From NCBI GenBank assembly GCA_017411405.1, contig JAFQQE010000014.1:1067-65066 (forward strand): a stretch of DNA of 64,000 bases, in the 5' to 3' direction. A program made the translations under genes and the position numbers. The DNA is from Bacilli bacterium (GTDB taxonomy: Bacteria > Bacillota_I > Bacilli_A > RF39 > UBA660). Under the pieces are notes generated by a model. It saw only the letters and a list, made by a program, of their open reading frames with translations. It ran no database searches and was not told the DNA's origin. Shown one piece after another: positions 13,134 through 23,985 of the stretch. The first letter of the stretch is position 1. The number at the start of each line of letters is the position of its first letter.

Positions 13134-14306
13134 ATGAGAAGCAAGTTTAAGAATATGGACAAATTTTTATTTTTTCTTATGATCATTTATACTATACTTG
13201 GACTTGTTATGGTATTTAGCGCATCAAGTATGACAGCTGTATTAGAATATGGACAAAGTGAATCTTTCTTTTTTGTAAGACAACTAGTATTTGTTATTTT
13301 AGCTTATATTGCTGGATTTATTATATTATTTATTCCAAATTCTATAATTAATTTATTAAAAAAAATGAATAAATTAATTATATTTGGTGCAATAGGTTTG
13401 CTATTAATAACTTTACTTTTTGGAAAAACAATTAATGGGGCAAAAAGTTGGATTGATTTGGGTGTTATAAGTATTCAACCTAGTGAATTTGTAAAAACTA
13501 TGACAATATTGTTTATTGCATTTTCGTTTAATAATCCAAAGAAAATGTTTACTAAATTCAAGTTTTTAACGCCTTTCATATACGCTGTTATTTGTGTAGC
13601 ATTAATCGCATTTCAACCGGATTTTGGAACTGCTATGATTTTAGCAATAACATGCTTTTTTATGTTTGTTAGTTTACCACTAAAAGATTCTAACTATAAA
13701 AAATTAAAAATTATTGCTGGTGCATTTGCAGTTATATGTTGTTGTATGTTTTTCTTTGGAGGAGAAATATTAAAAAACACAAAAATATTAAGTGAAAAAC
13801 AACTTAGCAGATTAACGTTTACTAATCCTTGTACAAGATATAGAGAACCAACTGGATATCAAGTATGTAATGGTTTTATCGCAATAAATAATGGGGGATT
13901 ATTGGGTTCTGGCTTAGGTAATAGCACCCAAAAATTCTTGTACCTTCCAGAAGCATTTACAGATTTTATATTCCCAATAATAGTAGAAGAATTGGGAAGT
14001 ATAGCAGGGGCTTTTATAATAATTGGATTTTTAATAATGTTATATAGAATACTTAAAATTGCAAGAAATGCAGAAACATTAACTGGCTCTCTTTTAGCAT
14101 TCGGTACATTTTCATTAATTGTTACACACTTATTAATAAATCTACTTGGAGTATTAGCAATAATACCAATAACTGGTGTACCATTACCATTCTTAAGTAG
14201 TGGAGGAAGTTTCTTACTAAATATAATAATATTATTATTTATTACTGAAAGAGTAAGTATAGAAAGTAAAAATACTAAATTAAAAAGAGAAATTGCAAAT
14301 CTATAA
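13134..14306 (+). CDS. ftsW: SEDS-family peptidoglycan polymerase (FtsW/RodA/SpoVE)
   Basis: GLVMVFSAS, GAKSWIDLG..IQPSEFVK, QPDFGT, LPEAFTDFIF and GVPLPFLSSGGS motifs. FtsW versus RodA is not resolved. Confidence 0.88.
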   Translation: MRSKFKNMDKFLFFLMIIYTILGLVMVFSASSMTAVLEYGQSESFFFVRQLVFVILAYIAGFIILFIPNSIINLLKKMNKLIIFGAIGLLLITLLFGKTINGAKSWIDLGVISIQPSEFVKTMTILFIAFSFNNPKKMFTKFKFLTPFIYAVICVALIAFQPDFGTAMILAITCFFMFVSLPLKDSNYKKLKIIAGAFAVICCCMFFFGGEILKNTKILSEKQLSRLTFTNPCTRYREPTGYQVCNGFIAINNGGLLGSGLGNSTQKFLYLPEAFTDFIFPIIVEELGSIAGAFIIIGFLIMLYRILKIARNAETLTGSLLAFGTFSLIVTHLLINLLGVLAIIPITGVPLPFLSSGGSFLLNIIILLFITERVSIESKNTKLKREIANL

Positions 14307-14332
14307 TATGCTAAAAATATAGCATATTTTTT
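14305..14332 (+). terminator. Intrinsic terminator after ftsW
   Basis: AATATGCTA-aaaata-TAGCATATT followed by TTTT. Confidence 0.75.
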
Positions 14333-14343
14333 ATATAAAGAAC

Positions 14344-14373
14344 TTGTATAAAAATACAAGTATATGTTATTAT
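14344..14373 (+). promoter_or_regulatory. SigA-type extended -10 promoter of the small peptide gene, with a palindrome over the -35
   Basis: TTGTAT (14344-49), 18-nt spacer, TG-n-TATTAT (14365-73). The inverted repeat ACTTGTAT-aaa-ATACAAGT (14342-14361 region) overlaps the -35. Confidence 0.6.
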
Positions 14374-14446
14374 AGACATTAATATATTTAACATGCGTTA
14401 GTTGCACTCCTTATAATTAAATTATTAATTTTAAGGAGGTGAAGTG

Positions 14447-14524
14447 ATGAAACAAATAGATAAATTTTTATCTTTCGTTATAATCCTTCTATTTATATTT
14501 GTATTTATACTATTATTTAAATAG
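14447..14524 (+). CDS. 25-aa hydrophobic peptide, candidate type I toxin (MKQIDKFLSFVIILLFIFVFILLFK)
   Basis: Consensus SD AAGGAGGTG at 14433-14441, ATG 14447, TAG 14522-24; single TM helix flanked by Lys. Missed by the ORF track. Confidence 0.72.
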   Translation: MKQIDKFLSFVIILLFIFVFILLFK

Positions 14525-14641
14525 AATAAAAGCACACTAACGGGTTTTGGTTTTGTTAGTGTGCACAAACCAATTTAGGAGTGTACCTAACTAATCGATC
14601 TGTTAAGTATATCCTTTTTATTTTATGCAAATATCTTTGCT
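14525..14641 (-). ncRNA. Candidate cis-antisense RNA (type I antitoxin), about 115 nt
   Basis: Minus-strand TTGACA (14676-71), 17 nt, TATTAT (14653-48). It ends at the perfect 10-bp hairpin GCACACTAAC/GTTAGTGTGC (14532-14564), which has a U-tract only on the minus strand. Confidence 0.6.
14578..14624 (+). terminator. Intrinsic terminator of the small-peptide mRNA
   Basis: GGAGTGTAC-c-TAAC ... GTTA-a-GTATATCC stem (with G-U pairs) followed by TTTTTATTTT on the + strand. Confidence 0.7.
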
Positions 14642-14647
14642 AAATAC

Positions 14648-14676
14648 ATAATATCGTAATAAAATTTTTATGTCAA
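14648..14676 (-). promoter_or_regulatory. SigA promoter driving the antisense RNA
   Basis: Perfect TTGACA, 17-nt spacer, TATTAT; no protein-coding ORF lies downstream on the minus strand. Confidence 0.68.
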
Positions 14677-14847
14677 AAAATATAGAATAAAGAATATTAA
14701 TGTGATAAAATTTATATAGAGTAGAAAGAGCACTATTTCAAATAACTTTTATACTAACCTAAATGATAATCCATATGTAATTAATTAAAAAGAATTATAT
14801 ATCTAGATTAATTTCTTTTTTTTGTGTATAATATTTTTAGTGATTTT

Positions 14848-16155
14848 ATGAAAAATTTAAATAGTGAATTAGTAAAACAAATTAGTAATATAAAAGGTGA
14901 ACCAGAATGGATGTTAGATTTTAGACTTAATAGTCTTAAATCTTTCTTTGCGTTAGATAATCCTAGTTTTGGACCTAATATAGATATAGATTTTAATAAT
15001 ATAAATTATTATAAAAAAGTAAGTGATTTAAAAGATAATTGGGATAATGTTGATAAAGATATTAAAAATACATTTAATGAATTAGGGGTTATTGAAGCAG
15101 AAGAAAAATATTTATGTGGGGTATCTAACCAATATGAAAGTGAAGTCGTATATCACAAAAATAAATTTGATAATGATAATATAATATTTACAAGTACAGA
15201 TGAAGCATTAAAAAAATATCCGGAATTATTTAAAAAATATTTTAATAATTTAGTTAAATATGATGAAAATAAATATACAGCATTAAATGGAGCGTTATGG
15301 AGTGGAGGAACATTTATTTATATTCCACCATTTACTAAGCTAGATAGACCACTACAAAGTTATTTTAGAATCAATAGTGTATCTTTAGGGCAATTTGAAA
15401 GAACTATAATAATAGTCGATGAAGGAGCAGAGCTTTCTTATATAGAAGGGTGTACAGCTCCTACTTATTCTGAAAATAGTTTACATGCAGGAGTAGTTGA
15501 AATATATGTAGGTCGTAATGCAAAATGCAAATATTCAACTATTCAAAACTGGAGTACTGATGTATATAACTTAGTAACTAAAAGAGCAATAGTAGAAGAA
15601 AATGGCTTGATGGAATGGGTTGACGGTAACTTAGGAAGTAAAGTAACTATGAAATATCCTTCATGTATATTAAAAGGAGATTATTCCAAAGGTAATTCAA
15701 TAAGTATTGCATATGCAAAAAATGGTCAATACTTAGATGCTGGAGCTAAAATGATACATATTGGTAAAAATACTAAAAGCAATATAATTAGTAAATCTAT
15801 TGCAAGTAGTGGTGGAATAAGTAATTACCGTGGTACTACTAAGATATCTAATAGTGCAAATAATTCAATAGCAAGTATAAAATGTGATACAATTCTTTTA
15901 GATGATAAATCTATAAGTGATACAATTCCAAAAAACATAGTATTAAATGATACAAGTATAATAGAACATGAAGCATCTGTATCTAAAATAAGTGAAGAAA
16001 AATTACTATATTTAAAAGAAAAAGGTATAGATGAAGAAACAGCAAAATCAATGATAATAATGGGATTTATAAATGATTTTAAAAATGAATTACCAATGGA
16101 ATATGCTGTTGAATTAAATAGATTAATGAGTGGAGAAAATGTATGCAAGATCTAA
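14848..16155 (+). CDS. sufB: Fe-S cluster assembly scaffold SufB
   Basis: IEAEEKYLCGVSNQYESEVVY, ALNGALWSGGTFIYIP, GQFERTIII, YIEGCTAP, SLHAGVVE, HEASVSKI, ELPMEYAVELNRL. Confidence 0.93.
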   Translation: MKNLNSELVKQISNIKGEPEWMLDFRLNSLKSFFALDNPSFGPNIDIDFNNINYYKKVSDLKDNWDNVDKDIKNTFNELGVIEAEEKYLCGVSNQYESEVVYHKNKFDNDNIIFTSTDEALKKYPELFKKYFNNLVKYDENKYTALNGALWSGGTFIYIPPFTKLDRPLQSYFRINSVSLGQFERTIIIVDEGAELSYIEGCTAPTYSENSLHAGVVEIYVGRNAKCKYSTIQNWSTDVYNLVTKRAIVEENGLMEWVDGNLGSKVTMKYPSCILKGDYSKGNSISIAYAKNGQYLDAGAKMIHIGKNTKSNIISKSIASSGGISNYRGTTKISNSANNSIASIKCDTILLDDKSISDTIPKNIVLNDTSIIEHEASVSKISEEKLLYLKEKGIDEETAKSMIIMGFINDFKNELPMEYAVELNRLMSGENVCKI

Positions 16156-19322: not shown

Positions 19323-19351
19323 TTGACATAATATATTTATACTGATATAAT
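19323..19351 (+). promoter_or_regulatory. Consensus SigA promoter of rpsP
   Basis: TTGACA, 17 nt, TATAAT preceded by TGn; AAGGAGG RBS downstream. Confidence 0.88.
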
Positions 19352-19380: not shown

Positions 19381-19644
19381 ATGGCTGTTAAAATAAGATT
19401 AAAAAGAATGGGATCTAAGCAAAAACCTTTCTATAGAATAGTTGCTGCTGATTCAAGAAGTCCAAGAGATGGTAGATTTATTGAAACTATCGGAACTTAT
19501 AATCCAATTGTAAAAGAAAATAATGTTACAGTTGATGAAGAAAAAGTTGCTAAATGGATTAAAAATGGTGCTCAACCAACTGATACTGTTAAAAGTTTAT
19601 TAAGTAAAAATGGTATTTGGTCTAAAATTAAAAACAATAAATAA
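19381..19644 (+). CDS. rpsP: 30S ribosomal protein S16
   Basis: [42 protein letters not shown]. Confidence 0.98.
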
Positions 19645-23337: not shown

Positions 23338-23985
23338 ATGAAATTTTTAAGTGATTTAGGAATAGAAATAAAAAACAAAGAATTATTAAGAGTTTCTCTA
23401 ACACATTCTAGTTATACAAATGAATTTGGCGGAGAAAATTATGAAAGATTAGAGTTTTTAGGAGATTCAGTTTTGCAACTTATAATGAGTGAATATTTCT
23501 TTACTAATACTGAGTATAGTGAAGGAGATATGAGCAAGATTAGAGCAAGTTATGTTTGTGAAAATGCATTATATGAATATTCTAAAAAGATTAATCTTAT
23601 AGGTGCAATTAGAGTTGGTAATAGCTTAGTTGGAAGTGTAAACGAAACTATAGTAGCAGATATATTTGAAGCAGTCTTAGCAGTAATATACTTGGATAAA
23701 GGATATGATGTAGCTAAAAAATACGTTTTAGATATAGTTTTACCATATATTAATACTAATCATGTATTTTTAAGTGATTATAAATCACATCTACAAGAAA
23801 TGGTACAAACAGAAAAAAAATCATTAGAGTATGTTTTAATAGAAGAAACAGGACCTGCTCATGATAAAAGATTTAAAGTTAATGTATTAGTAGACGATAT
23901 AGTATTTGGAACAGGAATAGGAAAAAGTAAAAAAGAAGCAGAACAAAGAGCTGCTAAAAATGCAATAGAAAAAGTAGCAAGGTGA
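23338..23985 (+). CDS. rnc: Ribonuclease III
   Basis: Signature NYERLEFLGDSVL, ADIFEAVL and a C-terminal dsRBD (DYKSHLQE...GPAHDKRF...GKSKKEAEQRAA). Confidence 0.97.
   Translation: MKFLSDLGIEIKNKELLRVSLTHSSYTNEFGGENYERLEFLGDSVLQLIMSEYFFTNTEYSEGDMSKIRASYVCENALYEYSKKINLIGAIRVGNSLVGSVNETIVADIFEAVLAVIYLDKGYDVAKKYVLDIVLPYINTNHVFLSDYKSHLQEMVQTEKKSLEYVLIEETGPAHDKRFKVNVLVDDIVFGTGIGKSKKEAEQRAAKNAIEKVAR

Follow-up and report, generated by a model that had tools for sequence, protein, structure and literature searches.

The 64 000 bp window analysed here (positions 1067 to 65 066 of contig JAFQQE010000014.1, from the Bacilli bacterium assembly GCA_017411405.1) contains a candidate type I toxin–antitoxin (TA)-like module made up of a short peptide gene and a convergent antisense RNA (asRNA). 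We consider it likely that the minus-strand segment from 14641 to approximately 14526 is a genuine non-coding RNA gene, and that its product forms a type I TA-like pair with the 25 aa membrane peptide encoded on the plus strand at 14447–14524, serving as cis-antisense RNA and probably as antitoxin. A convergent cis-antisense RNA over the 3′ untranslated region (UTR) of the peptide mRNA was the core reading of a first-pass annotation of this stretch, and it is upheld by a conserved promoter, conserved terminators and strand-specific compensatory changes. As a single copy makes a weak case in AT-rich DNA, the argument draws its weight from the conservation of a family.

The predicted asRNA is approximately 116 nt long, with its 5′ end placed 7 nt past the −10 box, at 14641, and its 3′ end inside a U-tract. 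Its promoter (14648–14676, minus strand) consists of a −35 box TTGACA (14676–14671), a 17 nt spacer and a −10 box TATTAT (14653–14648). The 5′-terminal hairpin P1, GCAAA-GATA-TTTGC (14640–14627), lies outside the overlap with the mRNA and is followed by a near-invariant A-rich linker, (C)AUAAAAUAAAAA (14626–14615), that is the complement of the U-tract of the mRNA terminator. The central hairpin P2 (14614–14578), made up of GGAUAUACUUAAC, a 10 nt loop and GUUAGGUACACUCC, mirrors the mRNA terminator hairpin. A short linker separates P2 from P3 (14564–14532), the intrinsic terminator of the asRNA, formed by GCACACTAAC and GTTAGTGTGC with a 10 bp stem (14564–14555/14541–14532) and a 13 nt loop. 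Directly 3′ of P3, the U-tract TTTTATTC (= UUUUAUUC; 14531–14524) abuts the peptide stop codon (14522–14524). The 124 nt antisense stretch folds at −33.9 kcal/mol (z = −5.2).

The peptide mRNA is predicted to extend from a transcription start site (TSS) near 14380 to approximately 14622, within a U-tract at 14615–14624. The two RNAs would therefore be perfectly complementary over approximately 97 nt (14526–14622), an overlap confined to the 3′ UTR of the mRNA, as the asRNA ends at the peptide stop codon without entering the open reading frame (ORF). Each terminator hairpin has a T-tract on one strand only: P3 lacks one on the plus strand, where ACAAACCAA follows, and the hairpin at 14578–14614 has a T-tract, TTTTTATTTT, downstream on the plus strand alone. 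A simple terminator scan returned 0 sites; its loop limit was 8 nt and the loops here are 13 and 10 nt. Terminators across the family were found with our own strand-by-strand search for a hairpin plus a T-tract. Most of this layout had been proposed in the first-pass annotation, and the consensus promoter, the three hairpins, the strand-specific U-tracts, an RNA of about 115 nt starting near 14641 and an overlap of about 90 nt were all recovered here. The absence of an ORF downstream of the promoter, claimed at the same time, is nearly correct. A 24-codon frame with a TTG start (14630–14556) begins in P1; as it lacks a Shine–Dalgarno (SD) sequence and is anywhere from 8 to 53 codons long in different copies, it is judged non-coding.

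When positions 14380–14680 were used as the query in a BLAST-type similarity search, a second copy was found in the same genome (95% identical), together with 80–86% identical copies in two congeners and, in other genera, many matches of approximately 70 nt to the block formed by promoter, P1 and linker. Alignments A1 and A2, which comprise 18 copies, were used to build a covariance model (R1) that spans P1 and P2 with the linker between them. MAFFT and RNAalifold applied to the full-length seeds gave only the upper stem of P2, with P1 and P3 misaligned, and a structure given by hand and covariance-model alignment were used in place of that result. R1 matched the window copy at 14573–14643 (minus strand; 72.5 bits, E = 5e-11) and detected 8 copies in the host assembly (approximately 1.04 Mb, 78% complete).

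The asRNA promoter in the window scores 11 of 12, which is joint-best in a 2 kb region. The exact pattern TTGACA-N17-TATWAT occurs twice in the window, against 0.12 expected; the second occurrence (19323–19351, plus strand), which has an extended −10 TG, serves as the promoter of rpsP (ribosomal protein S16; 19381–19644). Looser promoter-like matches are not enriched locally (15 versus 18 expected) and, as these are at chance level in AT-rich DNA, the promoter of one copy is not decisive. The promoter block is, however, kept in all 65 aligned copies (64 distinct), at a fixed distance from P1. Upstream of P1, the 64 distinct copies share the consensus cTTGa-N17-TATGtTATTAT-GaAT, and conservation starts exactly at the −35 box, with zero sequence information further upstream. 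This family consensus reads as a −35 plus extended −10 promoter, and the asRNA appears, from the sequence, to have its own strong sigma-A-type promoter.

In a subset of copies (loci L130, L133, L135, L145, L156, L023 and L028), the −35 box and spacer of the asRNA promoter fall within an inverted repeat, AAAACGCACTTGATAAAAGTGCGTTTTT, flanked on either side by T-runs, which looks like a bidirectional terminator overlapping the promoter. The window copy is without it.

Compensatory changes point to a structured RNA read from the minus strand. The upper helix of P2 is 98% paired over the 64 distinct copies, and both partners have changed in 83 cells, a number that no shuffle out of 500 attained; slid controls were 28–52% paired. 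The modelled lower P2 pairs fit poorly (54% paired) and are unreliable. In P2, 85 cells are G·U, a pairing available only to the antisense strand, while 3 are A·C, which would pair only on the mRNA strand. The same bias (25 G·U versus 1 A·C) was present in seeds gathered by BLAST alone, before there was a structure model, and a strand-neutral stem search for P3 gave 49 versus 9. In P1, 4 of 5 pairs change on both sides in alignment A3, with arms such as CAAG/CTTG, CAAA/TTTG and ATGAAG/CTTCAT, and the most frequent loop is GAAA; the A-rich linker columns are invariant in A1 and A2. A hairpin followed by a T-tract was found on the antisense strand in 61 of the 65 copies, and on the mRNA strand of the same DNA in 6 of 65. 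In most of the 61 this terminator is 31–46 nt past P2, and in other copies, too, P3 ends before the stop codon. The G·U and covariation signals recur at several pair positions and across diverged subfamilies.

Several points weigh against this interpretation. The window copy has CG where most copies carry the extended −10 TG, with a perfect −35 box. Its P2 has a C·A mismatch at a position that reads G·U in the mRNA-strand hairpin, the mRNA-strand version pairs slightly better than the antisense version, and the single-sequence minimum free energy (MFE) fold of this copy contains another pairing in place of P2. The G·U and covariation counts ignore shared ancestry, and A3 was fitted to the model structure. 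The host is an uncultured metagenome-assembled genome (MAG), 78% complete, and the displacement and decay steps of the mechanism set out below are inferred by analogy.

The window peptide, MKQIDKFLSFVIILLFIFVFILLFK, has a perfect SD sequence upstream and one hydrophobic stretch, and is of the short (<60 aa) membrane-directed type; an alternative in-frame GTG start at 14444 would add one residue. Using a simple ORF finder, a convergent peptide with a strong SD sequence was picked opposite 52 of the 65 asRNA copies. These are mostly hydrophobic and 24–31 aa long, though the picks include a few wrong frames or ORFs in decay, and their subfamilies include MKKKDLLISFLILIIILLIVSLMILCIKK, MTKREFSQFIIIILLFILVFIILFK (the window type), MKTKTFIIKVLKLIAIILLLSTLLVLAIKK and MRKQEKYLCSIIILLIIVILIILIKIVPTV. 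Scans of six representative peptides against Pfam and NCBIfam returned only noise, with no toxin-family match at E ≤ 10.

The mRNA promoter, as read from the sequence (14344–14373, plus strand), has a weak −35 box TTGTAT (14344–14349), an 18 nt spacer and an extended −10, TGtTATTAT (14365–14373). In an alignment of the 5′ regions, TGnTATAAT lies approximately 7 nt 5′ of a conserved mRNA head in other copies; as this motif corresponds to 14365–14373, the TSS in the window was placed near 14380. The plus-strand promoter named in the first-pass annotation, TTAACA-18-TATAAT (14388–14417), has a good score but was discarded: it lies inside the conserved 5′ UTR that pairs with the 3′ end. Within that 5′ UTR, a predicted hairpin (14405–14441, plus strand) pairs an anti-SD segment, CACUCCUUA (14405–14413), with the SD sequence, UAAGGAGGUG (14432–14441), and similar local anti-SD/SD hairpins are found in other copies. 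An 8 bp inverted repeat, ACTTGTAT-AAAA-ATACAAGT (14342–14361), overlaps the weak −35 box of the mRNA promoter and is degenerate in the second, 95% identical module (L002); it could be an operator or a leftover hairpin.

Over its first approximately 30 nt, the mRNA repeats P2 in the same sense, with 5–7 loop nt missing across the family. In the window this 5′ head is AUAUAUUUAAC-AUGC-GUUAGUUGCACUCC (14382–14411, plus strand), with a loop 6 nt shorter than that of P2, which reads AUAUACUUAAC-10 nt-GUUAGGUACACUCC when the two are compared; in another subfamily, GGAUACAUUUGA...AUCAGAUG is present in both the 5′ head and P2. Mean local alignment scores of head against P2 were 34.6 for cognate pairs, 22.5 for non-cognate pairs, 19.0 for reverse complements and 18.2 for shuffled sequences, and we conclude from these alignments that the 5′ head and P2 appear to coevolve.

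Since P2 and the mRNA terminator hairpin are complements of each other, the 5′ head, as a copy of P2, complements the 3′ end of its own mRNA, and the full-length mRNA is therefore predicted to close into a 5′–3′ panhandle. MFE folds of full-length mRNAs contained 10–30 bp of 5′–3′ pairing in 45 of 45 modules, while 10 pairs were reached in 24 of 45 with non-cognate heads and in 11 of 45 with shuffled heads. Differences between head and P2 are mostly of the kind that the 5′–3′ helix would tolerate (73 wobble-compatible, G·U, versus 15 incompatible, A·C). The window mRNA (14380–14623) folds at −63 kcal/mol (z = −5.9), with the ends paired in both the MFE and centroid structures and the SD sequence in a hairpin with CACUCCUUA, although its fold is less regular than those of the other modules inspected. 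In the four folds inspected, the loop of the terminator hairpin forms a 6–8 nt single-stranded bulge on the 3′ side of the panhandle.

From this we put forward, tentatively and as something short of probable, that the antitoxin RNA is a molecular mimic of the 5′ end of the toxin mRNA. Coevolving P2 and head would compete for the same 3′ UTR segment, the mRNA would switch between a protected panhandle and a duplex exposed to RNase III, and the loop deleted from the head would leave a bulge for docking. Such an arrangement would join the 5′–3′ locking of Gram-negative systems with the 3′ antisense targeting of Gram-positive ones.

In the mechanism we propose, the asRNA would be in excess over the mRNA, as is expected because its −35 plus −10 promoter is better than the extended −10 with a poor −35 that serves the mRNA. 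P1, outside the overlap, is a probable shield for the 5′ end of the asRNA. First contacts are likely to be made by the P2 and P3 loops, which are complementary to the panhandle bulge and to the loop of P3c, the complement of P3; the perfect duplex of approximately 97 bp would then form and oust the imperfect 5′ head. Cleavage of the duplex by RNase III would then cost the mRNA its 3′ terminator and its protected 5′ end, and it would decay before peptide synthesis. If asRNA synthesis stopped, the structured, stable mRNA would outlive the asRNA and the membrane peptide would be made. That SD locking and 5′–3′ pairing keep the mRNA silent and stable fits the logic of stable toxin mRNA and labile antitoxin RNA, by analogy with known systems. 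RNase III decay via 3′ duplexes of 100–140 bp is established for txpA/RatA, bsrG/SR4, bsrE/SR5 and yonT/SR6 (PMC6562991), and SD sequestration, long-distance 5′–3′ pairing and Gram-positive 3′-side asRNAs are recognised type I hallmarks (PMC8594479). The window itself contains rnc, as had been noted in the first-pass annotation: an RNase III catalytic domain (PF14622; 113.5 bits, E = 5.7e-33) is encoded at 23374–23745 on the plus strand, in an open frame of 238 aa, with G000:C24:24440–24811 as its place in the host assembly.

Three other explanations were weighed. That there is no antisense transcript, and that the block is a DNA-level or plus-strand element (an extension of the mRNA 3′ end, a protein site or the end of a mobile element) which resembles a promoter through AT-rich chance, would be in keeping with the unenriched local promoter-like matches (15 versus 18 expected). 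We give this scarcely any probability, as it does not account for a −35 plus extended −10 at fixed spacing and fixed distance to P1 in 64 distinct copies with nothing conserved upstream, for minus-strand terminator T-tracts in 61 of 65 copies, for G·U cells that can pair on that strand alone (85:3 and 49:9) or for the covariation of P1 as an RNA hairpin. A mode of action like that of Fst/RNAII or SprA1/SprA1as, in which the asRNA would chiefly target the ribosome-binding site in trans and the 3′ overlap would be secondary, is also very improbable. The first-pass annotation had drawn attention to CACTCCT as complementary to the SD region, and this heptamer is indeed present in the 3′ arm of P2, where the RNA form, CACUCCU, matches AGGAG(G)UG; the asRNA is also 3′-sided and spares the ORF, as in Fst/RNAII and SprA1/SprA1as (PMC8594479). 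A trans anti-SD role was nevertheless rejected as a family feature. Over 45 modules, matches between asRNA and SD window were at the shuffled level (5.5 versus 5.6 nt; −10.2 versus −10.1 kcal/mol), the repeat common to the asRNA and the mRNA 5′ UTR is same-sense, and the cis anti-SD of most subfamilies is placed 3′ of the shared segment, without a counterpart in the asRNA. CACUCCU is found in the window asRNA because P2 copies the 5′ head, the 3′ arm of which is the cis anti-SD in the window's subfamily.

The remaining alternative accepts the asRNA and disputes the TA function: the peptide would be a harmless small membrane protein, such as a regulator or a subunit of a membrane complex, tuned by the asRNA. 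The peptides have no detectable similarity to catalogued type I toxins, and many bacterial small membrane proteins are non-toxic according to reviews. We nevertheless regard this as unlikely, since a locked SD, a 5′–3′ closed mRNA and a dedicated strong antisense promoter together are a type I signature (PMC8594479). Nor does it sit well with the high copy number (8 per Mb here and up to 14–17 elsewhere, with tandem arrays), the several diverged peptide subfamilies within one genome or the variable genomic positions described below, as a housekeeping subunit would be expected to be single and syntenic. By sequence, the TA-like module has the features of the type I class, namely a small hydrophobic peptide, an antisense RNA gene, and SD sequestration with 5′–3′ pairing.

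The closest parallels to the TA-like module are the Bacillus subtilis systems txpA/RatA, bsrG/SR4, bsrE/SR5 and yonT/SR6, which share with it convergent genes, a Bacillota host, an asRNA of approximately 100–200 nt with several stem-loops and 3′ pairing of about 100 bp. The SD is partly sequestered in the txpA/RatA type as well; the duplex is an RNase III substrate and first contacts are probably loop-to-loop (PMC6562991). The 3′–3′ complementarity is approximately 97 nt here and about 100–140 bp there (PMC6562991). The first-pass annotation had likened the layout to txpA/RatA and bsrG/SR4, and the comparison stands for the 3′ overlap but not for its extent: those asRNAs overlap the 3′ part of the ORF (PMC8594479), whereas the asRNA in the window stops at the stop codon. 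Further differences are that no sequence or covariance-model similarity (Rfam) and no toxin-family match was detected, and that the peptides here are shorter (24–31 aa), with a KKKD/TKRE-type N-terminus and a C-terminal K or KK. The asRNA here is directed at a 3′ segment with which the 5′ end of the mRNA is itself predicted to pair, and the modules are chromosomal, multi-copy and, as far as seen, not prophage-borne.

Like Fst/RNAII (par of pAD1) and SprA1/SprA1as, the module belongs to Bacillota, with toxins of approximately 30 aa and a 3′-side asRNA that spares the ORF (PMC8594479). Those asRNAs act outside the overlap, on the translation initiation region, whereas here the complementarity to that region is at chance level and the shared repeat is same-sense; each strand also has a terminator of its own, in place of a single bidirectional one that is shared, and the peptides have no Pfam or NCBIfam match to the Fst-type toxins. 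The hok/sok system of plasmid R1 and aapA1/IsoA1 of Helicobacter pylori belong to Gram-negative hosts, and trimming of the mRNA 3′ end is needed for their activation. Closure of the mRNA by a 5′–3′ interaction and sequestration of the SD, which are generic to type I, are common to them and to the module described here (PMC8594479). Their asRNAs target the 5′ part of the mRNA (PMC8594479), while the asRNA here is encoded opposite the 3′ UTR and, of the two strands of the long-distance helix, complements the 3′ one and resembles the 5′ one.

The type I toxins of Clostridioides difficile are longer than the peptides described here, and their loci are associated with CRISPR arrays or prophages. 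No sequence relationship to them was detected, but systems such as CD0956.2/RCd10 and CD0977.1/RCd11 likewise set convergent cis-asRNAs against small membrane toxins, in multiple copies in gut Bacillota (PMC5961336, PMC7699646). We conclude that the modules appear to form a new family within a known class, in which the asRNA and the two ends of the mRNA stand in an unusual three-way relation.

When R1 was used to search genomes of the same GTDB family, 82 of 151 genera were positive, with up to 14 copies per genome and tandem arrays common. An order-level draw gave 92 positive genomes of 151 and up to 17 copies, and all the positives among the matches listed were in the same family. As none of approximately 180 genomes from other Bacilli families was positive for R1, the RNA appears to be confined to one GTDB family of small-genome, uncultured gut Bacilli. 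No Rfam model reached its gathering score in the whole window, and only chance-level matches were returned at E ≤ 10 in 14250–14850, the best being ctRNA_pT181 (E = 1.5, plus strand). Full-text literature searches found no description of the RNA or peptide family. As a prediction the asRNA gene holds up on comparative grounds, and its family, type I TA-like and present in multiple copies, appears to be undescribed.

The RNA family and several peptide subfamilies are thus absent from Rfam, Pfam and NCBIfam, and the source lineage, RF39-like gut and rumen Bacilli with genomes of approximately 1 Mb, is without a cultured model. The density of the modules is unusual (8 copies in approximately 1 Mb, and up to 14–17 in related genomes of approximately 1.2 Mb) and raises the question of what part they play in such small genomes. 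A directly testable design, in which an antisense RNA is set against an intramolecular helix, is offered by the three coevolving elements, the 5′ head, the 3′ terminator and P2; it would also be of interest for engineered RNA devices derived from type I systems (cf. PMC12721322). The covariance model would allow unannotated asRNA genes to be marked in hundreds of MAGs.

The module in the window lies between an FtsW/RodA-like gene (13134–14306) and a SufB-like gene (14848–16155). The nearest SufB relatives are from uncultured gut and rumen MAGs labelled 'Bacilli', 'Erysipelotrichaceae' or 'Tenericutes', for example Ca. Coprovivens and CAG:321, which places the host among small-genome, RF39-like members of the Bacilli. 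In 25 other genera (loci L040–L063 and L094) no module was found within 1.5 kb of sufB, and the window site is therefore not an ancestral location. One genome of the same genus has a copy at a nearly identical contig coordinate (G005:C45:15425), which is possibly the same site. The module seems to have been gained and lost at the genus or species level. Immediately 3′ of the FtsW/RodA-like gene, a hairpin, ATATGCTA-AAAA-TATAGCATAT, followed by TTTTTT (14307–14335) is probably the terminator of that gene and the left boundary of the inserted module.

The second whole module in the host genome (L002; G000:C14:143658–143959) is 95% identical to that in the window. Its peptide ends in ...FILVFIRLSK, compared with ...FIFVFILLFK in the window; a charged and a polar residue are thereby introduced into the hydrophobic stretch, and the peptide may be a toxin that is decaying or attenuated. 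Unlike the window copy, L002 retains the extended −10 TG in its asRNA promoter. Six more asRNA copies are present in the host genome at C17:101956, C25:120960, C16:40531, C14:60482, C17:151282 and C28:282 (loci L120 and L123–L127), and the peptides opposite belong to other subfamilies (MTKREFSLFIINLLLFFIVITLLYK, MKTKTFIIKVLKLIAIILLLSTLLVLAIKK, MFKKDLLIFSLIILIFLLVLLLFVVLI and MKKRTFIVNVLRYICIILSLLIIMINAIKK). For two of these six the simple ORF finder gave no peptide; one is at a contig end and the other is possibly an orphan asRNA. In relatives, head-to-tail arrays of 3–5 copies spaced approximately 350–520 bp apart were found, for example at G101:C11:6259–8010, G183:C3:43851–45061, G069:C15:38498–39452 and G195:C1:289180–290162.

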